Counted from the first letter of the stretch, positions 5,897 to 41,219 are shown. The stretch: 42,070 nt of DNA from Candidatus Parcubacteria bacterium (GCA_009691505.1 SICJ01000002.1:1-42070), one strand, 5' to 3'. The notes: generated by a model not told the origin, from the sequence alone. Numbers and translations are program-made.

Positions 5897-7420
5897 TTAA
5901 TTATCTCGCAAAATTTTTACTTTCGCACCGATACTACATAGTCTTTTTATGATATCTTCGTAGCCACGATTTATACTATATATGTTGCGAAGTATTGATT
6001 TGCCACTTGCCCCCAGCATTCCTATGAGAATAATAGCGCCAGGACGTAGAGCGGGCGGACAAATAACCTCCGCTGATTTCAATTTTGTCGGCCCAGTAAT
6101 ATATAGTCGGTGTGGATCTACGAGATTTGTATTTGCTCCGAGTTTGTCTATGTCCTTCATGTAAATTGCGCGCTTTTCATAAGCCCAATCGTGGATGAAA
6201 GTTGTGCCTGTCGCCTGTGTTGCAATGATTGCAAAAAAAGGAAGATTGTCCATGTTGAGTCCTGGGTAGGGTCGGCACTCTATTTTTTCTTCAAGGGCGG
6301 TGAGTTTGGATGGAAAAGTTGTGATGTCTACAAGGTCGGTGTATTCATTTAATGCTTTGTATTTTTCGCTTCTTTTATATTTGAACCCCATTTTTTCTAG
6401 TTTAAGTAATTCAATTTCCAAAAAATCTATTGGACAACGTTTGATGATGATAGAAGAATTTGTGACGATGGCTGCCGCAAGAAAAAACATAGATTCAATA
6501 GGATCTTCCATAAGATAATATGTGACAGGTGTATTTATATTTTCTACTCCATAAATAGTGATATTTGTAGTACCTATACCTTCTACCTTTACCCCACATT
6601 TTTCTAAAAATAGACAAACTTCTTGTCCCATATAATTTGCTGATGCAAATTTAATAACGGTCTTGCCTGGGATAAGCGCCGCCGCCATTATTGCATTTTC
6701 TGTCACGGTGTCTCCAGATTCATATAGCACTATTTCCGCAGGTCTTAGTTTTGATGACGATATTTCATAGTTATCTTTGTTTGTTTTTATATTTACACCA
6801 AGTTTTTCTAACGCGAAAAAATGAGGACGCACAGTGCGTGAACCCAGGTTGCATCCACCTGGTTGAGGAATCTTAAAATTTTTTAGGTTGTGGATAAGCG
6901 GTCCGATAAGCATAATAATACTTCGTGTTTTTCCCGCCGCAGCGCCGTCTATATTTTTTATTGCAAAAGTTTTTGGAGGTTTTATTTCTACGTCGTTGCC
7001 GTGCCACTTTACATTTACGCCGATACTTTCAAACACTTCAATCATTCTATACACCTCCTCTATTTTCGGGACGTTTTTTATTGTCGTCGTGTTGGTATTG
7101 AGCAGGGAAGAACAGAGTATTCCCATCGCTCCGTTTTTAGAAGTTTTAGTAACGATTTCTCCTGAAAGTTTTCTACCGCCCTCTATTTCAATATTTAACG
7201 CGCCAGTTGAAAGTGTGACGATGTCGCGATTGAGCGCGTCACTGATTTTTGAAATCATTTCTGTGGTCAGGTTTTGCTCACCTTTTTCAATACGCGCCAC
7301 AGCGCTTTGCGTTGTGCCGAGTTTTTTTGCAAACTCTGCTTGTGTAATTCCTCGTTCTTCGCGAAGCGTCTGCGCCAGTTTTCCTATGTGTGCAAATTTT
7401 TTGTTGGCATTTTTGGGCAT
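5897..7420 (-). CDS. murA: XRE-family HTH domain fused to UDP-N-acetylglucosamine 1-carboxyvinyltransferase (MurA)
   Basis: Residues about 10-66 (LREERGITQAEFAKKLGTTQSAVARIEKGEQNLT) form a classic Cro/C1 HTH. The rest aligns with MurA, including the catalytic-Cys loop PQPGGCNLGSRTVRPH. Confidence 0.88.
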   Translation of the reverse strand: MPKNANKKFAHIGKLAQTLREERGITQAEFAKKLGTTQSAVARIEKGEQNLTTEMISKISDALNRDIVTLSTGALNIEIEGGRKLSGEIVTKTSKNGAMGILCSSLLNTNTTTIKNVPKIEEVYRMIEVFESIGVNVKWHGNDVEIKPPKTFAIKNIDGAAAGKTRSIIMLIGPLIHNLKNFKIPQPGGCNLGSRTVRPHFFALEKLGVNIKTNKDNYEISSSKLRPAEIVLYESGDTVTENAIMAAALIPGKTVIKFASANYMGQEVCLFLEKCGVKVEGIGTTNITIYGVENINTPVTYYLMEDPIESMFFLAAAIVTNSSIIIKRCPIDFLEIELLKLEKMGFKYKRSEKYKALNEYTDLVDITTFPSKLTALEEKIECRPYPGLNMDNLPFFAIIATQATGTTFIHDWAYEKRAIYMKDIDKLGANTNLVDPHRLYITGPTKLKSAEVICPPALRPGAIILIGMLGASGKSILRNIYSINRGYEDIIKRLCSIGAKVKILRDN

Positions 7421-7446: not shown

Positions 7447-7455
7447 ATTATAACA
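7447..7455 (-). promoter_or_regulatory. Extended -10 (TGtTATAAT on the minus strand) for HTH-murA
   Basis: The minus strand reads TGtTATAAT followed by a 26-nt A-rich leader with no SD. A possible -35 (TTGATT) lies inside the left arm of the 7469-7601 palindrome. Confidence 0.45.
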
Positions 7456-7459
7456 TATA

Positions 7460-7468
7460 TGCTATAAT
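7460..7468 (+). promoter_or_regulatory. Extended -10 (TGcTATAAT) pointing into the palindromic element
   Basis: A consensus extended -10. The predicted transcription start, near 7475, falls a few nt inside the left arm. Confidence 0.45.
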
Positions 7469-7601
7469 AAATCAAAACATTAATAAAAAGCCTGTGCTTT
7501 CAGAGCACGCGTAAAAATCTGCTGATTTTTCTGCTCCGCTCGGCGCCGACGCGCCTGCGCGAGTCTCTTCAAGCACAGGCTTTTTATTAATGTTTTGATT
7601 T
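7469..7601. repeat. Palindromic element A: perfect 31-bp inverted repeat around a 71-nt core with an AT hairpin and a GC hairpin
   Basis: 7469-7499 is the exact reverse complement of 7571-7601. Inner stems are AAAAATC/GATTTTT (7513-7530) and CGC-tc-GGCGC...GCGCC-t-GCG (7537-7559). Confidence 0.9.
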
Positions 7602-7652
7602 CTTTAAACATTTGTCAATCTTCCCAAACTCCCTTATGATATGCTTATCTTT

Positions 7653-8666
7653 ATGTCATTTTTCTCAAAAAAACTCGGTATTGATTTGGGAACCACAAGC
7701 ACCCTTGTGTATGTGCCTGGAAAGGGAATTGTCCTAAACGAGCCTTCTGTCGTTGCTATTTCTGAAGAAGACAACAGAATCCTCGCTATTGGTCTTGAAG
7801 CAAAAAATATGATCGGTCGCACACCTGAGAGCATTATTGCTTATCGTCCGATGAAAGACGGAGTCATTGCAGATTATCGTGTGACAGAAGCAATGCTTCG
7901 TTATTATATAAACAAAGCGCTCGGCAAGTGGAATTTATCAAAGCCAGAAGTGCTGGTGTCTGTGCCCGCAGGAGTCACATCCACAGAACGTCGTGCGGTC
8001 GTGGAGGCCGCTATTCGTGCAGGTGCAAAAAATGCTTATGTTGTAAAAGAACCGATTCTTGCAGCGATTGGTGCAGGGATTCCTATCCAAGAAGCGATGG
8101 GACACATGGTAGTAGATATTGGCGGAGGTACGACAGACGTCGCTGTTATTTCTCTTGGAGGAATTGTCGCAGCGACTTCTGTAAAATGTGCAGGTAATAA
8201 AATTGATTATGCGATTACTGATTACATTAAAAAACAATTCAATCTAGGTATAGGCGACAAAACCGCTGAAGATATAAAAATAAAAGTGGGCTCTGCTATT
8301 CCACTTGATGAAGAGCTTGCGGTGACGATAAAAGGACGAGATTTTGTGACAGGTCTTCCTCGTTCAATTGAAATTAAAACCAACGAAATAGTAAAAGCTA
8401 TCAACAAAGAACTTCGCGAAATCGTAAAAGCAATTAAAGATGTATTTCAAGATACTCCACCAGAGCTTGCGTCAGATATTATAGATAATGGAATTATTAT
8501 GACAGGTGGTTCATCACAGCTTCGTAACCTTCCAGATCTTGTTTATCGTCGCACAGGTGTAAAAGCCGTCCTTGCAGAAGACGCATTGTATTGTGTAGTG
8601 AAAGGGACAGGAATTGCCCTAGAGCATCTAGATGTATACAAAAAGAGTATTATTGCTAAGAGGTAG
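7653..8666 (+). CDS. mreB: Rod shape-determining protein MreB (paralog 1)
   Basis: Actin-fold motifs GIDLGT, VVDIGGGTTD and MTGGSS. I placed the start at the second ATG (MSFFSKKLGIDLGT); the ORF opens at 7641. Confidence 0.9.
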   Translation: MSFFSKKLGIDLGTTSTLVYVPGKGIVLNEPSVVAISEEDNRILAIGLEAKNMIGRTPESIIAYRPMKDGVIADYRVTEAMLRYYINKALGKWNLSKPEVLVSVPAGVTSTERRAVVEAAIRAGAKNAYVVKEPILAAIGAGIPIQEAMGHMVVDIGGGTTDVAVISLGGIVAATSVKCAGNKIDYAITDYIKKQFNLGIGDKTAEDIKIKVGSAIPLDEELAVTIKGRDFVTGLPRSIEIKTNEIVKAINKELREIVKAIKDVFQDTPPELASDIIDNGIIMTGGSSQLRNLPDLVYRRTGVKAVLAEDALYCVVKGTGIALEHLDVYKKSIIAKR

Positions 8667-8674
8667 AGTGGTGG

Positions 8675-8701
8675 TTGACAAATTTATTTTATTGGTATAG
8701 T
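8675..8701 (+). promoter_or_regulatory. Promoter of the unclassified RNA (TTGACA ... TGgTATAGT)
   Basis: TTGACA at 8675-8680 and the extended -10 TGgTATAGT at 8693-8701, directly after the mreB stop. Confidence 0.55.
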
Positions 8702-8707
8702 ATGTAA

Positions 8708-8997
8708 TAGACTGATCTTTTTTACTCGGAGTAGTGAAAGGTGGCGGTATTGCTATCCGACCTCACTTTACTGAATAGTCTGTGTTTTCAGAGTCTGCGT
8801 CTCATCGCATAGATTTTGACACAGACACTCGGTACTGAGACTCTACTCTCTGAAGCACAAGGAAAGGTTGTCGCCTGAAGATTGCCCATATGTGACCGCG
8901 AAACACCCCCTGTGCGCCGATCAGCCCCCCCCAGCCATTGTGCCATATACTCTTTGTCGGAAAAGAGATGGAAACACAACGGTGGGGGTTTTTCTTT
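8708..8997 (+). ncRNA. Unclassified structured RNA candidate, about 290 nt
   Basis: No plausible ORF. Visibly less AT-rich than the flanks. Helices: AGTGA-GGT-CGG/CCG-ACC-TCACT (8733-8767), TTCAGAG/CTCTGAA or AGAGTCT/AGACTCT (8787-8854) and GTCTG/CAGAC. The terminal long hairpin (about 8927-8988) is followed by TTTTTCTTT. Confidence 0.55.
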
Positions 8998-9016
8998 GGT
9001 GTATAATATTTAAATA

Positions 9017-9778
9017 ATGGAAGATCTCGCTCAAGTTTATAAAAAAACATCCAGTCTCCATCACGCTTATGTGATTGAGGGAAATCAAAAAAAAGATTTT
9101 GCAGGTCTGCTTTCGTTTTTGGAAAAAAGTGTTGGGTTTAAAACTCATGGTAATCTAGATTTTTATCACGAAAGTTTTGATTCTTTTGGTATTGATGAGG
9201 CTCGCAGGATTAAAGAGATGCAACAAAAAAAGCCTTTTACAGAAGGTGGAAAAAAAGTTTTTATTCTTTCTTTTAATTTTATTACGCGCGAGGCGCAAAA
9301 CTCACTTCTGAAAGTTTTTGAAGAACCTACTTCTGGAACACATTTTTTTCTTCTTGTGCCGTCAGCAGAAATTTTTCTGCCAACGGTACGTTCTAGAGTG
9401 GTGATTTTATCGCAAAAATATTCTGTTGAGGGAAGACATGGGAGTGATGGCGGGAGCGGGAGCAGGGAAATTGCCTACGGCAATTTCCCTGCCGACTTCT
9501 GCAAAAATTTTCTCAAAAGCTCGCCTAAAGTGCGCCTTGAAATGTTTGCAGAAATTATTGAAGAAAAAGATAAGGCACGCGTGATAAGTTTTTTAAATAA
9601 TTTGGAATCGCTACTTTTTCAAAAATGGAATAAAAATTTAAGCGTCGAAAAAACCACCGACAAAGCGGAAATTTTTAAACAGATTATCACTTGTAGAAAT
9701 TATCTTCACGACCGCGCGCCGAGCGTAAAAATGATTTTAGAACACATCACACTTGTTACTCCAGTTGTAATAAGTTAA
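9017..9778 (+). CDS. holB: DNA polymerase III delta' subunit (HolB-like), short form
   Basis: HHAYVIEG at the N-terminus and FNFITREAQNSLLKVFEEPTSGTHFFLL (the sensor/SRC region of clamp-loader subunits). Confidence 0.8.
   Translation: MEDLAQVYKKTSSLHHAYVIEGNQKKDFAGLLSFLEKSVGFKTHGNLDFYHESFDSFGIDEARRIKEMQQKKPFTEGGKKVFILSFNFITREAQNSLLKVFEEPTSGTHFFLLVPSAEIFLPTVRSRVVILSQKYSVEGRHGSDGGSGSREIAYGNFPADFCKNFLKSSPKVRLEMFAEIIEEKDKARVISFLNNLESLLFQKWNKNLSVEKTTDKAEIFKQIITCRNYLHDRAPSVKMILEHITLVTPVVIS
9462..9492. repeat. Perfect 14-bp stem with a 3-nt loop inside the holB coding sequence
   Basis: GCAGGGAAATTGCC-tac-GGCAATTTCCCTGC. It encodes ...SREIAYGNFPA... within a Gly/Ser-rich insertion and is preceded by the GGGAGC GGGAGC tandem. 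Confidence 0.9.
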
Positions 9779-12903: not shown

Positions 12904-13965
12904 ATGAAAAAACATCTAGAAAAATTTTATGCCCTATTTTCCAATGATATCGGCATTGATCTCGGGACTGCCAACACTCTCGTATATGTAAAGGGTCGCG
13001 GTATTGTTTTAAATGAGCCTTCAGTTGTGGCGATCAATCAAAAAACTGGTCGTGTGGTAGCTATCGGCAATCAAGCAAAACAAATGCTCGGCAGAACACC
13101 CGGACACATCGTTGCGGTGCGTCCTCTCGTAGACGGTGTTATTTCAGATTTTGAAGTAACAGAAGAAATGGTTACTTATCTTTTAAATACCGCTCAAAAA
13201 GATAATAAAAAGTTTTTTGGACCGCGTGTAGTTGTCGGTGTTCCGAGCGGAATCACGAGCGTAGAAATCCGCGCAGTGCGTGACGCGACAAAAAATGCTG
13301 GCGCACGCGAAGTGCATATTATTGAAGAGCCAGTGTCGGCAGCTATTGGTATCAAGCTTCCCGTGATGGATCCAGTGGGGAGTATGATTATAGACATCGG
13401 AGGTGGCACGACAGACATAGCGGTGATTTCCCTCGGTGGTGTCGTGCGTTCAAAAAATGTACGCATCGCTGGTGACAAACTCAACACCGACATCATTTCA
13501 TATATCAGAAGTGAATTTAAAATTTTAATTGGTGAAAAGACGGCTGAAAGTGTAAAAATTGCTATTGGTTCTGTAATACCAGGAAGTGTGCCAATGGAGG
13601 CAGTGATAAAAGGTCGCGATCTTGTGACTGGTTTACCTCGCGAAGTGGTCATTACAGACGCAGATATTCGCGAAGCTATTTCGCAGTCTGTAGATACACT
13701 TGTAGAAGCAGTAAAAGAGGTTTTGGAAACTACACCGCCAGAAATACTTTCGGATGTGATGCATCGTGGCGTGTATCTCGTGGGCGGAGGCGCGCTTATA
13801 AAAGGCTTTCCAGAGCTTTTAAATGAATATATAAAAATCCCTGTTTACGTCGCGGAAGACCCGCTTACCGCAGTCGCGCGAGGCACAGGTATCGTGCTTG
13901 AAGACTTGCAGGCTTTTGCTGAAGTTTTAATTGTAAATGAAGATGACATACCTTCTGCAAAGTAA
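12904..13965 (+). CDS. mreB: Rod shape-determining protein MreB (paralog 2, in the mreBCD-PBP2 operon)
   Basis: GIDLGTANT, IIDIGGGTTD and LVGGGA motifs, followed by mreC. Confidence 0.93.
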   Translation: MKKHLEKFYALFSNDIGIDLGTANTLVYVKGRGIVLNEPSVVAINQKTGRVVAIGNQAKQMLGRTPGHIVAVRPLVDGVISDFEVTEEMVTYLLNTAQKDNKKFFGPRVVVGVPSGITSVEIRAVRDATKNAGAREVHIIEEPVSAAIGIKLPVMDPVGSMIIDIGGGTTDIAVISLGGVVRSKNVRIAGDKLNTDIISYIRSEFKILIGEKTAESVKIAIGSVIPGSVPMEAVIKGRDLVTGLPREVVITDADIREAISQSVDTLVEAVKEVLETTPPEILSDVMHRGVYLVGGGALIKGFPELLNEYIKIPVYVAEDPLTAVARGTGIVLEDLQAFAEVLIVNEDDIPSAK

Positions 13966-24717: not shown

Positions 24718-24789
24718 GGCCCTATCGTCTAATGGTTAGGACGGGAGCTTCTCAAGCTCCAAATCCGGGTTCGATTCCCGGTAGGGTCA
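24718..24789 (+). tRNA. tRNA-Glu (anticodon CTC)
   Basis: Acceptor GGCCCTA/TAGGGTC, anticodon arm GGAGC-TTCTCAA-GCTCC, T arm CCGGG-TTCGATT-CCCGG, discriminator A. CCA is not encoded. Confidence 0.92.
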
Positions 24790-25390
24790 CACTAAGGGAT
24801 TTTGTATCTCTAAATTCATCAGCTAGCTTGTACGGTATAGATAATTTTGGTGTTCCATTAAGTACTTCTTCATAAGTTGGTAATTCTTCAAAAATAAGAC
24901 CGAACAAGCCCTTCAAAGTTTGAATATCTTCTTGTTTTACAAGCATTTCTACTGGGTGTTCCATTAGGTTTTTTACATACCCCACAAATGAATGAATGTC
25001 ATTTTCTTGAACTTCTAGGCCATTCCTTTGTTCTCTAGCTAACTCTAATTGTCGGTGTAATTCGTTGATTTGTTTTTCAAGTTCATTTCTGATTATTTCA
25101 TTTCTAGTAGAGGTGTAGACTTCTATTTTTTGTTTCTTCTCTATTTCAAGTTGGATGACTGTTGTTCCAACCCTTACTGAAAATTCACCCAATTCTTTTT
25201 CCTTTTCTCGATATTTATTTATTAGGGTGGCCTCAAGACCTTTTATAAAACCGTCATCTTTATATTTTAAATTAGAGACAAATTTAAAACATAATCATTA
25301 CTATTAAAGGTTTCTTCAAGGGGATTAAGGGCCGACAACCAAACAGTGTCATTGTCAGTTTCAAATGATTTATATGAACCCTTTGGGTTC
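24790..25390 (-). pseudogene. Frameshifted C-terminal remnant of a recombinase-like gene abutting tRNA-Glu
   Basis: Two minus-strand frames join to give ...IENPKGSYKSFETDNDTVW...(frameshift)...KYKDDGFIKGLEATLINKYREKEKELGEF...coiled coil...LFGLIFEELPTYEEVLNGTPKLSIPYKL. There is no N-terminal catalytic domain and the frame runs into the tRNA 3' end. The large-serine-recombinase assignment is a recollection of similar C-termini. Confidence 0.4.
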
Positions 25391-25533
25391 TCAATAATTA
25401 TTTTGTATTTTGAATAATCAATCATATCTCTTGTTCGATAATAAATTCATTTCCGTCAGCGTCGGCAATAATGGCTTCTTTCCAGCCCCATGGTTTAGTC
25501 TCAATTTGTTGAACAATTTTTGCTCCGAAGTCA
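25391..25533. repeat. 143-bp direct repeat, copy 1 (3' end of the VOC gene plus 30 nt downstream)
   Basis: Aligns base for base with 26040-26182, with 6 mismatches. Confidence 0.92.
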
Positions 25534-25715
25534 TGGAACCATACTAGTGCTTGCACAATATTTCGATCAGCTTCTGTGTAAATATCACAAAGTTCTAATG
25601 CAATATGTTCAACAATTTTTAGGTGGTAATTAACCATCCATTCATGATAAGTAAAACTTTCTCTTGAAAAGTTTTCTATCGTAATGTTTTTAAATTTTGT
25701 GATACTTTCTTGCAT
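25422..25715 (-). pseudogene. Chimeric ORF: N-terminal fragment of an HD-domain protein fused to the duplicated VOC C-terminus
   Basis: ...HLKIVEHIALELCDIYTEADRNIVQALVWFHD is joined at DFG to AKIVQQIETKPWGWKEAIIADADGNEFIIEQEI. That tail is nearly identical to the tail of the 26071-26436 product. Confidence 0.65.
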
Positions 25716-25719
25716 ATAA

Positions 25720-26043
25720 TTAATATCGACTTATGTCGTTATTTTTCAGTTTTGATAAAATTGGGTTAGGTATATTGTTTAACACTTGCTTTACTTCTCC
25801 ATCAGAAATCATTGTTCTAATGAAATTAGTAATTTTTTCTAGTAGCTCTTGCTCATGGGTATTTTCAATTAAAGCGAATCTTACGGTATTTTCTTCGTCT
25901 TGTGCATTTTCTGCAAGAAGCACAATATCATTTTCTATGGCAAACTTTCGAACACTACCACGGAATTTTACCCCGATGAGGTTTTTCGTTGCACTATTTA
26001 CCTGATAGATATCCCAATTAATCATATTATTTAATCCAGTCAA
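25720..26043 (-). CDS. Hypothetical protein (weak acylphosphatase-like pattern)
   Basis: 107-aa ORF. IGVKFRGSVRKFAIENDIVLLAEN...VRFAL loosely recalls the acylphosphatase fold. The likely start is the internal ATG at 26025. Confidence 0.35.
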   Translation of the reverse strand: MTGLNNMINWDIYQVNSATKNLIGVKFRGSVRKFAIENDIVLLAENAQDEENTVRFALIENTHEQELLEKITNFIRTMISDGEVKQVLNNIPNPILSKLKNNDISRY

Positions 26044-26182
26044 TAATTATTTTGTATTTTGAATAATCAATCATATCTCTTGTTCGATAATAAATTCGTT
26101 TCCGTCAATATCGGCAATTATTGCTTCTTTCCAGCCCCATGGTTTAGTCTCAATTTGTTGAACAATTTTTGCTCCGAAGTCA
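26040..26182. repeat. 143-bp direct repeat, copy 2
   Basis: See copy 1. Confidence 0.92.
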
Positions 26183-26436
26183 GAAACTTTCTGTAAAAAT
26201 TGTTCTAAATTATCGACTTGGAATGATACTTGTTTTCGCCCGCCTATATAATTACTTGCCCAATCTTTTGAACGATAGTCAGCATTTTCTTCAATATTAA
26301 ATTCAACATCGTCAAGTTTTGCGGAAGCGAACGGCGGGCGAAACTCGTCAAAAGTCATTCCAAAAATTTCCTCATAGAATGATTTTGATTTATTGAGATC
26401 GGCTACGCCGATTAAAATTGATGAAACTTTTATCAT
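26071..26436 (-). CDS. VOC (glyoxalase/bleomycin-resistance/dioxygenase) family protein
   Basis: About 120 aa with the paired beta-alpha-beta-beta-beta pattern (ILIGVADLNKSKSFYEEIFG... / ...WGWKEAIIADIDGNEFII). Confidence 0.7.
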   Translation of the reverse strand: MIKVSSILIGVADLNKSKSFYEEIFGMTFDEFRPPFASAKLDDVEFNIEENADYRSKDWASNYIGGRKQVSFQVDNLEQFLQKVSDFGAKIVQQIETKPWGWKEAIIADIDGNEFIIEQEI

Positions 26437-26512
26437 AAAATTATTTATCTTCTTTTATTCTCATTGTATTTATATAAGATATCACAATTATGTAGGGTTT
26501 TTTCTATTTTAG

Positions 26513-26824
26513 CTACTCTAATTTCAAGTTCAGATATTTCAAAAGCTTTAATTGGGTGACCAGTACGATTTTTTCTATCACTCTGACCTTTTCCTCAACT
26601 TTCTTCAGTCCAAGCTTTGAAAGCATAAATTCCGCTTGGGGTATAATCTTTGATATAATTCCATTAATCAATGGGTAGAGATAATCAGGGCAAGATATCA
26701 TGTTTTTGTTGACAAATAAGGTCATTTTCTGGGTCTTTACTGCTAAGCCACAGCGAGTAAAAACCGTATTCCACCTAATAACCATATTTTCTATGGTGTT
26801 CCATTCTAGGTATGGTGAGCTCAC
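26513..26824 (-). CDS. Hypothetical protein
   Basis: 103-aa ORF with a GTG start and TATACT upstream. No recognisable motif. Confidence 0.3.
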   Translation of the reverse strand: MSSPYLEWNTIENMVIRWNTVFTRCGLAVKTQKMTLFVNKNMISCPDYLYPLINGIISKIIPQAEFMLSKLGLKKVEEKVRVIEKIVLVTQLKLLKYLNLKLE

Positions 26825-30582: not shown

Positions 30583-31650
30583 ATGTCAGTTGAAACCTTA
30601 TTTATTATTTTACTTTTAGCGCTTTTAGCAAATGCTATTTTTATTTGGCTTATATTTAAACGTGTCGTTGGAAAACCAGAGCTAGAAGAAAAAAAAGACA
30701 CTGGTCTCAATCTTCTTCTTCAACAAATGCACGAACTCACTCGCACAGTGGATTCAAAAATCGGTGAGAGCAGTAAGCAGGTAAATGAGTCTATGCGAAA
30801 TCAGTTTAGTGAATCATCGCGCTTGATACGGGAAGTAACGGCAAGCTTGACGAAGCTAGACGAGACCAATAAACAAGTCGTATCATTTGCCGACCAACTA
30901 CAGTCGCTCCAAGATATTTTAAAAAATCCAAAACAGCGCGGAATAGTGGGGGAGTATTATTTGGAAACGCTCCTTAAAAACGTACTTCCGCCTGGCTCGT
31001 ATCAGATGCAATATGCTTTTAAAAATGGCGACATCGTGGACGCAGTAGTTTTTGTAAAAGATAAAGTTATTCCGATTGACTCCAAGTTTTCTCTAGAAAA
31101 TTACAATAAAATAATTGAAGAAAAAAATCCCGCAGAAAAAGAGCGGTTGGAGAAAGTTTTTGTAAATGATTTAAAGAACCGCATTTCTGAGACCGCAAAA
31201 TACATACGCCCGACAGAAGACACGATGGATTTTGCTTTTATGTTTATTCCGCACGAAGCGATATATTATGATCTTTTGATAAATAAAGTTGGCGCATCGG
31301 CAGAAGACGCGGAAAATCTAATCCAGCGTGCGGCAGGAAAATACAAAGTTATTATTGTGTCGCCCACTTCTTTTTTAGCATATTTACAGACAGTGCTCCA
31401 AGGTTTAAAAGCGATGCAAATTGAAGATACTGCAAAGGATATTGTCAAACACGTCGGCGAGCTCGGTAGACATTTAAAAAGCTACAACGATTATCACAAA
31501 AAAATGGGCAACGCTCTTTCAACTACAGTAAACCATTTTAACGCGAGCTCAAATGAATTTAAAAAAATAGATAAGGATGTGATGCGTATTACAGAGCAAG
31601 AGATTGGGATAAAAGCCATAACTCTTGAAAAGCCAGAAATTGAGGAGTGA
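30583..31650 (+). CDS. rmuC: DNA recombination protein RmuC
   Basis: N-terminal TM, a long coiled coil, and the C-terminal RmuC nuclease-like region (VDAVVF...IPIDSKF...FMFIPHEA). Confidence 0.85.
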   Translation: MSVETLFIILLLALLANAIFIWLIFKRVVGKPELEEKKDTGLNLLLQQMHELTRTVDSKIGESSKQVNESMRNQFSESSRLIREVTASLTKLDETNKQVVSFADQLQSLQDILKNPKQRGIVGEYYLETLLKNVLPPGSYQMQYAFKNGDIVDAVVFVKDKVIPIDSKFSLENYNKIIEEKNPAEKERLEKVFVNDLKNRISETAKYIRPTEDTMDFAFMFIPHEAIYYDLLINKVGASAEDAENLIQRAAGKYKVIIVSPTSFLAYLQTVLQGLKAMQIEDTAKDIVKHVGELGRHLKSYNDYHKKMGNALSTTVNHFNASSNEFKKIDKDVMRITEQEIGIKAITLEKPEIEE

Positions 31651-37889: not shown

Positions 37890-38336
37890 ATGAAAATAAT
37901 ATTACTTAAAACTGTGCCGAAGGTAGGACAAAAATATGAGGTGAAAGACATTTCAGATGGACACGCGCTCAATTTTCTTATCCCAAAAAAGCTCGCGGAA
38001 GTGGCGACTCCTTCTGCTATAAAAAGAATCGGACTATTGCAAGCAAAAGACATGCAAGAAAAAAATATTCACGCAGACTTGCTCGCTAAAAACCTAGAGG
38101 ATATAAAAGGTGCACGTGTAGAATTTACAGAAAAAGCGAGCGACAAAGGGCATCTTTTTTCAAGTATTCATAAAGAGCGTATCGTGGAGGCTCTCAAAGC
38201 ACAGACTCGGCTAGACATAAATGCTGATTTTATAGATTTGGCAAAACCTATTAAAGAAGTTGGTGAACATAAAGTGACTGTAAAAGTGGGGGACAAAAGC
38301 GTGGAGTTTTTGGTGGTGGTTAATTCAGTAAAATAA
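37890..38336 (+). CDS. rplI: 50S ribosomal protein L9
   Basis: MKIILLKTVPKVGQKYEVKDISDGHALNFLIP is typical of bL9. Confidence 0.93.
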   Translation: MKIILLKTVPKVGQKYEVKDISDGHALNFLIPKKLAEVATPSAIKRIGLLQAKDMQEKNIHADLLAKNLEDIKGARVEFTEKASDKGHLFSSIHKERIVEALKAQTRLDINADFIDLAKPIKEVGEHKVTVKVGDKSVEFLVVVNSVK

Positions 38337-38439
38337 AAATAACCTCAAAAAGGGTACGGATTTTTTAAGCTTAAAAAATCCTGAAGCGCTCGGCTCGTCA
38401 GCCTCGCGACCCCCTTTTTGAGGTTATTTTTATTTTACT
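38327..38439. repeat. Palindromic element B: perfect 28-bp inverted repeat around a 57-nt core with an AT hairpin and a GC hairpin
   Basis: 38327-38354 is the exact reverse complement of 38412-38439. The core holds the perfect 24-nt palindrome GGATTTTTTAAGCTTAAAAAATCC (38358-38381) and CGC-tc-GGC...GCC-tc-GCG (38387-38408). The left arm overlaps the rplI stop. Confidence 0.9.
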
Positions 38440-38441
38440 AC

Positions 38442-38714
38442 CTAACCAACATGCACAATCTTTTTGATTTTGAAAGAGTTGTCAAAATGAGTCTTGCGAG
38501 TTTTTGCAAATTGCACGATACCATCTTTTAAAGCGAAAAGTGTTCGGTCTTTTCCCATTCCCACGTTTCGGCCAGGAAGCACGTCTGTACCTCTTTGACG
38601 CACTATAATAGAGCCAGCTTTTGCTACTCCTCCCGCAGTGATCTTTACACCGAGGTACTTTGGATTTGAATCTCTGCCGTTTTTGGTTGACCCACCGGCT
38701 TTTTTGGTTGCCAT
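38442..38714 (-). CDS. rpmA: 50S ribosomal protein L27
   Basis: [24 protein letters not shown]... is typical of bL27. Confidence 0.95.
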
Positions 38715-40977: not shown

Positions 40978-40984
40978 AAATTAC

Positions 40985-41018
40985 AAAAAAGACTCTTGCT
41001 AAAGCGAGGGTCTTTTTT
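40985..41018 (+). terminator. Intrinsic terminator
   Basis: AGACTCTTGC-taaa-GCGAGGGTCT followed by TTTTTT. Confidence 0.8.
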
Positions 41019-41063
41019 GTTTGTTTAAAAAATTATGATACAATAAATTTACAACTAAATAGT

Positions 41064-41219
41064 TGATTATCAAGAGAGTGGCGAGAACACTGGTTCTAGG
41101 ACCCACCGGCAACCAATTAGAAATAATAAGGTGCTAAATCCAGCCAAAGTATTGCGAAAGCAATATTATGGAAAGATAAGACTAGTCATCTATCTTTCCT
41201 CTTTATGAGGAATTTTTTA
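41064..41219 (+). promoter_or_regulatory. SAM-I (S-box) riboswitch with terminator/antiterminator platform
   Basis: TTATCAAGAGAG...GGCAACC...GGTGCTAAATCC...AGATAAG matches the S-box core. The antiterminator is GGAAAGATA/TATCTTTCC. The terminator is TTCCTC-tttat-GAGGAA plus T6 (41196-41218). Confidence 0.88.

Follow-up and report, generated by a model that had tools for sequence, protein, structure and literature searches.

The stretch of DNA analysed here, hereafter the window, comprises 42,070 nt of one strand from Candidatus Parcubacteria bacterium (GCA_009691505.1, SICJ01000002.1:1-42070), a member of Candidatus Paceibacterota (Parcubacteria, Patescibacteria). At positions 7469-7601, between the divergent promoters of mreB and of a gene for a MurA with a helix-turn-helix (HTH) domain (HTH-murA), lies a 133-bp palindrome in which a 31-bp perfect inverted repeat surrounds an interior of 71 nt. 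This palindrome is one copy (copy 1) of a previously undescribed family of small repeated elements in ultra-small Paceibacteria, and a second copy (copy 2) occupies positions 38327-38439 of the same window, where it fills the convergent intergenic region of rplI and rpmA. The conserved unit of the family is its centre, a structured core with two hairpins, and the arms that enclose it are long, matched within a copy and different in every copy.

The element between HTH-murA and mreB

The left arm (7469-7499, + strand) and the right arm (7571-7601, + strand) of copy 1 are exact reverse complements, as had been stated in an earlier note on this DNA (hereafter the original prediction), whose coordinates and sequences all proved correct; the element as a whole is assigned to neither strand. 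Its interior is rich in G+C (59% against 38% for the window), and the conserved core, which we call type B (CACGCG...CGCGAGT; 7506-7564, + strand), is 98-100% identical to the cores of L097, L216 and L126 (compared loci and contigs are given by such numbers throughout). The two hairpins anticipated by the original prediction lie within this core on the + strand, namely the AT-rich hairpin P2 (AAAAATC/TGCT/GATTTTT, with a conserved TGCT loop; 7513-7530), which a basal helix at 7509-7511/7532-7534 extends, and the GC-rich hairpin P3 (CGC-TC-GGCGC-CGAC-GCGCC-T-GCG, with a TC/T internal loop; 7537-7559). On either strand, the predicted fold is a long stem closing a junction with two hairpins. The minimum-free-energy fold is the three-way junction originally proposed, and covariation across 13 cores backs it. 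The folding z-score of copy 1 is -10.5 to -11.7; for both window copies, on either strand and as RNA or DNA, z-scores range from -8 to -12, and 0 of 200 shuffled sequences were as stable.

The surrounding promoters give information on the provenance of the arms. A murA promoter-like site (TTGATT-17-TGtTATAAT; 7447-7475, - strand; 10/12 matches in the promoter scan, with TG before the -10) overlaps the left arm, so that its -35 box, TTGATT at 7475-7470 of the minus strand, lies inside the arm, in agreement with the overlap noted earlier. A promoter-like site for mreB (TTGTCA-17-TATGAT; 7612-7640, + strand) is found just beyond the right arm, and its sequence is conserved in L003, L005 and L009. 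The extended -10 that had been described as pointing into the element, TGCTATAAT at 7460-7468, is present on the + strand, but the scan found no matching -35. Within the left arm, the outer ~10 nt (AAATCAAAAC) are native promoter DNA, and AAATCAAAA, the murA -35 region, recurs in the sister lineage L003/L004, where it flanks a different element. In the right arm, the outer part (GTTTTGATTT) is an inverted copy of this native -35 region, and its sequence is not present in the corresponding flank of L003, L005 or L009. An open reading frame (ORF) of 43 aa on the minus strand (7480-7611) was treated as spurious, because it crosses the palindrome and its arm portion cannot be conserved in other copies.

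A second copy between rplI and rpmA

Copy 2 (38327-38439, likewise assigned to neither strand), with a core of type A, has the same architecture and core motif, as the original prediction had noticed, with perfect arms of 28 bp that are unrelated in sequence to those of copy 1. Its left arm (38327-38354, + strand) consists of an outer part, AGTAAAATAA, which spans the last codons and the stop codon of rplI, and an inner part, CCTCAAAAAGGG, which is the conserved inner arm of type A. The rplI ORF (protein L9) runs from 37890 to 38336 with its stop codon at 38334-38336, and the arm covers its last 10 nt; in relatives, the 3' end of rplI reads AGTAAATAA or AGTAAGTAA. The type A core (38355-38411, + strand; P2 38358-38381, P3 38387-38408) is 95% identical to the type A consensus, and it is followed by the right arm (38412-38439, + strand), an inverted copy of the rplI 3' end that stops 2 nt before the rpmA stop codon (38442-38444). 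The promoter scan detected no promoter at copy 2.

The likeness between the two cores exceeds chance. The window has two occurrences of the shared motif CGCTCGGC..GCCT.CGCGA, with 0.00 expected, and a covariance model built without any type A sequence (R1) detects copy 2 in the same orientation with E = 5.5e-6; its match to copy 1 covers 7497-7573 with 93.9 bits. In L214, copy 2 is identical at 113 of 113 positions, and the flanks there are 90-95% identical.

The element sequences of the window were also present in independent assemblies (L001/L002, L010/L011, L214), including MEGAHIT contigs made with k = 141, and they are therefore not an assembly artefact. An arm length of exactly 31 bp had suggested a product of k = 31 de Bruijn assembly, and the adjacency of copy 1 to the HTH-murA gene had suggested an operator for the HTH domain of the MurA fusion, the latter being one of the readings offered originally. 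We assign next to no probability to either of these, and both are refuted: arm lengths in the family range from 13 to 39 bp, the element is missing in relatives that have the same HTH-MurA fusion (clearly so in L009, while the intergenic regions of several more are short), and copies occur at many loci unrelated to murA. The Logan contigs L001 and L002 start one base inside the right arm of copy 1, contig L010 stops at the palindromic AT-hairpin loop of copy 2, and contig L011 stops inside the copy 2 core. Since these k=31-based contigs end at or inside elements, metagenome assemblies of the candidate phyla radiation are fragmented at operon boundaries.

Core types, copy number and distribution

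By combining the matches of a pattern scan with loci reached via neighbouring proteins, we catalogued at least 26 distinct copies, each about 85-140 bp long and non-coding, which fall into the core types A, B, B2 and C. Each core type is nearly invariant between genomes, and several types occur side by side in one genome. The pattern scan covered one genome per GTDB species, and the matches listed were mostly chance matches in GC-rich genomes, so that the taxonomic range given here is a lower bound. Among these listed matches, all that carry flanking inverted repeats belong to Patescibacteria, and none lies outside Paceibacterota/Parcubacteria genomes. The sources are Paceibacterota STL-PAT9, Parcubacteria TrH-25oct19-271 and viral-cat_42_20, a metagenome-assembled genome (MAG) of Vogelbacteria, a MAG labelled 'Patescibacteria group' and a MAG assigned by its label to Saccharibacteria, with contigs that share 94-98% identity with STL-PAT9. 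The last of these, CAYOFR01 ('uncultured Candidatus Saccharibacteria' MAG SRP135725_co2_60), contains the L127 element, with flanks 94-98% identical to those at L049 of STL-PAT9, and also a type A copy (L087); judged by these identities, this MAG is probably mislabelled or contaminated.

The R1 model, which was built from 13 cores of types B, B2 and C only, recovers all catalogued copies, those of type A all being found in the same orientation (E from 1e-5 to 3e-3), and yields another six members from 686 kb of Paceibacteria that are more distant. The further copies and the covariation that the original prediction had asked for are thus found in relatives. Applied to the window with filters off, R1 finds two copies only. 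The elements can be dense: one STL-PAT9 contig holds at least 7 copies in 24 kb (three 8-kb blocks), and in one of these blocks (L049) the order is B / rplJ-rplL / A / hypothetical / MscS-like / B2 / hypothetical / C / 23S rRNA, such that every operon boundary bears one element. The orientation of the core relative to adjacent genes is mixed, with sense, antisense, convergent and divergent arrangements.

Rfam 15 gave no gathering-level match at either window copy, and searches with E up to 10 returned only models of miRNA precursors and a few unrelated families far under their gathering thresholds (for example Thr_leader, 27 versus 55 bits). A hammerhead reading of the junction CUGAAAC...GA was rejected, as the essential G8, A9 and A14 are missing by eye. 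Full-text searches of the literature gave no account of such elements in Patescibacteria, collections of phages and plasmids contained no meaningful match to the core, and among viral contigs the core pattern had only 4 chance matches, in GC-rich sequence. The idea that the arms are captured foreign 'spacers' was also dropped, two arm sequences having no exact match in IMG/VR. Among the window ORFs scanned, Pfam revealed no transposase, reverse transcriptase or HUH domain, and several small ORFs were left without a family.

Structure and covariation of the core

The core measures 51-64 nt, carries a semi-conserved inner arm of up to about 12 bp, and folds on either strand such that its two hairpins leave the 5' and 3' ends juxtaposed. 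P2 consists of a 3-bp basal helix and a 7-bp helix with a UGCU loop that is invariant in types B and C. A short junction, YUGYU, separates it from P3, which is composed of an outer helix of 2-3 bp, a UC/U internal loop, an inner GC helix of 4-5 bp and a variable loop, and the core ends with CGCRA at its 3' side. Across the 13 cores, 88% of cells in the alignment are paired, compared with 67% in shuffled alignments and 35-49% with slid partners, and 24 of 30 pairs have changed on both sides; 0 of 500 shuffles reached the observed values. P2 is paired in 99% of cells with changes on both sides in 9 of 10 pairs, and P3 in 86% of cells with such changes in 6 of 8 pairs.

This covariation, together with the invariant nucleotides of loop and junction, is what would be expected of a functional structured RNA, or of a processing or termination module, that is kept under selection at operon boundaries and was spread by duplication, with mobility being incidental. 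The core would then act as an RNA that binds a protein, and the long stem as a hairpin for RNase III or for termination. We regard this explanation as unlikely. Relative to transcription the core points either way, the two strands fold equally well, and the mismatch types give no sign of selection for one RNA strand: G-U is not in excess over A-C (4 versus 11 in the arms, 6 versus 7 in P3), the counts being uninformative on the RNA strand. In addition, the promoter scan identified no promoter into copy 1 and none at copy 2, and no Rfam family matched. The structured small RNA of the original prediction is weakly supported, in that the covariation and the conserved loops show that a single-strand fold matters; the mixed orientations, the equal folding of both strands and the mismatch counts argue against a strand-specific RNA gene.

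Composition and origin of the arms

Arm length varies from 13 to 39 bp with a median of 23, and 12 of the 26 copies have perfect arms. In the type A consensus (CTCAAAAAG|GGTAC...GAC|CCCCTTTTTGAG), conservation fades beyond about 10-12 nt from the core, and in type B only 2 nt beyond the core are conserved. Farther out, the arms of type A are complementary at 12.3 of 16 positions within a copy as opposed to 7.9 +/- 2.3 between copies. Searches with the arm sequences of the copies elsewhere in the window or the loci returned only chance AT-rich matches. Most arms bear an A5 tract on the 5' side and a T5 tract on the 3' side, which is the layout of a bidirectional terminator and would also suit a functional RNA, and many copies abut stop codons. 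The A-rich 5' arm was discarded as a signal of core orientation, because a palindrome shows the same on both strands.

The difference in arms between copies rules out an ordinary transposon with conserved terminal repeats, which the original prediction had already argued against. A MITE (miniature inverted-repeat transposable element) derived from an insertion sequence (IS), with mobilisation by a DDE transposase recognising terminal inverted repeats, is a highly improbable origin, even though the elements are small, non-coding, intergenic and multi-copy, type A has its semi-conserved inner arm of ~12 bp, and related genomes do hold a true MITE-like element, whose terminal repeats measure 13 nt and which carries a TTAA duplication (L166 versus L168). 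Each copy has terminal sequences of its own, conservation in the arms of type B ends after 2 nt, it is the centre that is conserved, the copies show no consistent direct target duplication, and no parental IS was found in about 0.93 Mb.

The MITE-like element, at 3872-3953 of L166, is a separate kind of palindromic element, with several hairpins in its GC-rich core, with conserved terminal repeats (CCCCGTTAGAAGT) and with the TTAA duplication. It is present or absent among L166, L168 and L169 (also L167 and L171), in contigs that are 98-100% identical. From these alignments it appears to be precisely missing from two lineages, which would mean that it was excised precisely or else inserted more than once at one TTAA.

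Both window copies include native functional DNA within an outer arm, namely the murA -35 box and the stop codon with the last codons of rplI, so that the matching stretch of the opposite arm must be the flank copied in inverse orientation. A third case is the type B element of L216, whose left arm, one of two perfect 21-bp arms, matches sequence in the element-free L218. In the outer arms of both window copies and in the comparison of L216 with L218, one arm appears to be ancestral and the other its reverse-complement copy. The inner arm sequence is not present in comparable element-free sites (L009, L127, L201). As the inner arm is missing there and arms resemble one another between copies, a part of each arm seems, from these comparisons, to belong to the copied unit, with the outer part added locally. 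Four of four cases fit a rule by which the native arm is always on the 5' side of the core; L216/L218 and L003/L009 are open to other readings, and we take the rule as a lead only. Arms also decay by point substitution, as between L127 and L049, which differ at two positions in one arm.

Turnover at orthologous sites

The murA-mreB site, which holds type B in the window, carries an inverted type C element with 35-bp perfect arms in L003/L004, which are 88-93% identical to the window in nucleotide sequence and encode an identical MreB protein. Type A is found at this site in L005-7, a decayed type A in STL-PAT9 and a C-like element in L142; L009 is clearly empty and without a palindrome, and in several relatives with intergenic regions of 50-130 nt no fold-back was detected. 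At the rplI-rpmA site, the identical copy of the window and L214 is replaced by type B in L216 and by plain terminators in L215, L218 and L222. L221 has at this place an insertion of ~500 nt (1944-2449) in the spacer instead of the element, followed by a plain terminator. Finally, three orthologous boundaries in STL-PAT9 (L049) and TrH-25oct19-271 (L057) each bear an element in both genomes, with core types that differ.

These comparisons bear in two directions on the functional RNA discussed above. The conservation of copy 2 (100% over 113 nt between lineages with ~90% average nucleotide identity) and the presence of an element at each of three orthologous boundaries despite the turnover of types are in line with it. 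The absence from the murA-mreB site of L009 and from the short intergenic regions of several relatives is not, and presence/absence together with type replacement at orthologous sites argues against a strand-specific RNA gene in particular.

The same sites are informative on the reading of the original prediction that comes closest of its three, namely an element that inserts into terminator-like palindromes. Here only the core would be mobile and would target the apical loop of existing long palindromic terminators, the arms being native terminators whose stem is left undisturbed by a core with juxtaposed ends. Long perfect bidirectional terminators are indeed native to the clade (21-bp arms in L215, 14-bp arms in L222), and most arms are terminator-like in their A5 (5' side) and T5 (3' side) tracts. 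Moreover, the type C core of L049 sits in type-A-like arms (L049_C versus copy 2, W2_A; 15/16 positions), and sites that hold different cores have outer arms that look homologous (L049 versus L057). We nevertheless consider loop insertion to be quite unlikely, given that at four empty or near-empty sites (L009, L127, L201, L218/L222) no prior palindrome corresponding to the arms was found, the murA-mreB site of L009 among them. In L216 and for the B2 copy of L049 the element stands beside an intact native terminator rather than inside it. Furthermore, the outer arms of type A are AT-only and would make poor terminator stems, those of copy 2 include rplI coding sequence, and the divergent promoters of murA and mreB need no terminator between them.

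The 'native' terminator at 1570-1640 of L216 has arms of 15 bp and a 27-nt loop that holds a small GC hairpin (GAGCGGGTTAGCGAAGCGCTTTAGCGA), and it may itself be a further, miniature member with a hairpin in its loop.

A candidate mechanism and its difficulties

Given the conserved centre and the copy-specific arms, we favour, with slightly better than even confidence, a copied or mobile hairpin element in which fold-back synthesis forms the arms and preserves their perfect match, and which also serves as a terminator or insulator. The core would be copied between intergenic sites, either by an enzyme that recognises folded single-stranded DNA or by replication-associated template switching between hairpins, and its conserved centre would be the recognised or selected module. 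A 3' end beside the folded core could then copy the opposite flank, which would give rise to an inverted duplication of native DNA, and hairpin-primed, template-switch DNA synthesis may produce and lengthen the arms and keep them perfect. The resulting palindrome of A-tract, stem and T-tract might act as, or replace, a bidirectional terminator or insulator, and we propose that this role of the whole structure explains why the element is tolerated at operon boundaries and at times retained there. Three reports describe how template switching in replication can homogenise the arms of inverted repeats, invert spacers and make perfect hairpins from adjacent sequence (PMC8604942, PMC8794818, PMC7202029). 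This precedent fits the perfect arms, the outer layer derived from the flank and the occurrence of cores in either orientation.

Several observations weigh against a mobile element with fold-back arms. In the comparisons of L049-B2 with L127 and of L173 with L201, most of the arm sequence is missing from the empty site, so that these arms either move as part of the element or were lost along with it, and only the outer part of the arms is accounted for by flank duplication. Likewise, arms resemble each other between copies more than shuffled sequences do, with 14 pairs scoring >= 10 against 1.1 expected. For types A, B and C, no filled and empty sites compared were nearly identical, so that an 'empty' site could be a deletion and the mobile unit's exact limits are not fixed. 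The identity of copy 2 (113/113, with flanks differing by 5-10%) points to selection or recent recombination over a purely selfish element. In about 0.93 Mb, we found neither an ORF-bearing parent, nor core halves split by cargo, nor an enzyme for the element. Finally, a simple terminator scan calls neither window element, the loops exceeding the limit of the scan.

A bolder version of the proposal, which we hold to be doubtful, is a new class of mobile DNA, in which a T-shaped hairpin intermediate of folded single-stranded DNA joins the 3' end of the target and primes synthesis on the flank. If this were true, each insertion would be marked by an inverted instead of a direct target-site duplication, and the element would correspond, on a bacterial chromosome, to rolling-hairpin priming, possibly with an HUH-type or host replication enzyme as its driver.

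Patescibacteria have tiny, streamlined genomes that are thought to be poor in repeats, a view which the dense and diverse structured palindromes at operon boundaries alter. These elements may in addition show how Patescibacteria terminate or insulate transcription. Their reversed layout, with a conserved centre and perfect copy-specific arms partly copied from the flank, would represent a natural record of fold-back or template-switch synthesis, and could reveal either a new mechanism of transposition or, in organisms whose repair is reduced, a quasipalindrome pathway of unusual activity.

Other features of the window

The remainder of the window is ordinary chromosome, with genes for mraZ/mraW, penicillin-binding proteins, a Mur ligase, RmuC, RecR, aminoacyl-tRNA synthetases and ribosomal proteins. 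The MurA encoded at 5897-7420 has an N-terminal HTH domain of the Cro/C1 type, a fusion that is found in thousands of Patescibacteria proteins and that is the divergent neighbour of mreB in part of the clade; a second MreB paralogue is located at 12904-13965, next to mreC. Between mreB and a holB-like gene, a non-coding stretch of 350 nt (8666-9017) is G+C-rich by eye, has a folding z-score of -3.0 and is 87.5% conserved in the sister lineage L004 and not in more distant relatives. No Rfam family matched it even at E up to 1, and it may be an unannotated RNA or leader.

The RmuC-family protein encoded at 30583-31650 is a curious presence in a genome that carries long perfect inverted repeats; inversion at short inverted repeats is raised in rmuC mutants of E. 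coli. A block of 32% G+C (24752-26824) that immediately follows a tRNA gene (24718-24789) contains small minus-strand ORFs, most without a Pfam match and one resembling glyoxalase/bleomycin-resistance proteins, and may be a small integrated island. Toward the end of the window, an S-adenosylmethionine (SAM) riboswitch (S box, 54 bits) lies at 41064-41182, with the S-adenosylmethionine synthetase gene downstream on the source contig and a plain bidirectional terminator (40983-41020) just upstream.

Comparison with known systems

Small palindromic repeats and MITEs of bacteria are treated in two reviews (PMC2229807, PMC3184786). Like Correia/NEMIS, ERIC, RUP, BOX, REP/BIME and REPIN sequences, the Paceibacteria elements are short, non-coding, intergenic, multi-copy and hairpin-forming, and they share with them presence/absence polymorphism and a possible role at transcript ends, as those repeats can affect termination or the processing of mRNA. 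What is conserved there is either the ends or the entire unit, and a direct target duplication is typical. The Paceibacteria element, in contrast, has a conserved centre, self-complementary arms unique to each copy and an outer arm that is an inverted copy of the flank. Thus, it is small, non-coding, multi-copy and presence/absence polymorphic as a MITE is, whereas its outer arms are unique per copy, with terminal repeats semi-conserved only over the ~12-nt inner arm of type A, and no consistent direct repeat of fixed length flanks the 26 copies, unlike the unrelated L166 element with its clean TTAA duplication. The conserved 20-40-nt imperfect palindrome and the inverted doublets of REP and REPIN sequences have no counterpart either, the unit being here a single asymmetric two-hairpin core.

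Hairpin-forming GC-rich elements of mitochondria, such as the GC clusters of yeast (PMC4478555) and the repetitive hairpin-forming elements of sponges (PMC2800124), offer another parallel. As in the Paceibacteria, structured GC-rich modules have there invaded the intergenic DNA of compact, AT-rich genomes, their structure is constrained, and modules merge and shuffle. These organelle hairpins are however without long, perfect, copy-specific arms, and GC42 has a short direct AG target repeat. The double-hairpin elements of Allomyces are a further organelle analogue.

Template-switch (quasipalindrome) mutation, as the reports named above portray it, builds and maintains perfect stems through reverse-complement copying of adjacent sequence, homogenises arms and can invert the spacer, which would match the perfect arms, the native sequence in one arm and the occurrence of the core in either orientation; it is a mutational process and not an element, and leaves the same conserved core at dozens of loci unaccounted for. 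Most copies follow the order of A-tract, stem and T-tract known from intrinsic bidirectional terminators, many lie directly after stop codons, and the element replaces a plain terminator at rplI-rpmA. Such terminators differ from it in their loop of 3-8 nt, compared with a structured insert of 51-71 nt, and the element has arms of up to 39 bp and also occurs between divergent promoters.

In the inverted terminal repeat (ITR) of parvoviruses such as adeno-associated virus (AAV), a T-shaped hairpin with flip and flop forms, the folded 3' end primes DNA synthesis, and the HUH nuclease Rep cuts at a defined site. The likeness to the AAV ITR is one of topology only, that is, a long stem and two small internal hairpins around a three-way junction. 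The ITR is terminal on a linear single-stranded genome, whereas the Paceibacteria element is internal to the chromosome and has no sequence similarity to it, and no Rep/HUH domain was found among the window ORFs scanned with Pfam. IS200/IS605 elements have left- and right-end hairpins that are alike and a fixed target tetranucleotide, and attC sites have conserved outer R and L boxes. Elements derived from IS200/IS605 and attC sites resemble the present family in what would be structure-based recognition, in lacking a direct target duplication and in stems that vary and stay paired. Yet P2 and P3 are dissimilar and no conserved motif such as a fixed tetra- or pentanucleotide flanks the element, and the boxes R'' (RYYYAAC) and R' (GTTRRRY) of attC are not at the arm ends, copy 1 (W1) ending with GTTTTGATTT and copy 2 (W2) with ATTTTACT. 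Taken as analogies, the nearest systems are the repeats of the MITE/REP type, with the same ecology and the opposite pattern of conservation, and the GC-rich hairpins of mitochondria, whereas the parvovirus repeats correspond in topology only.

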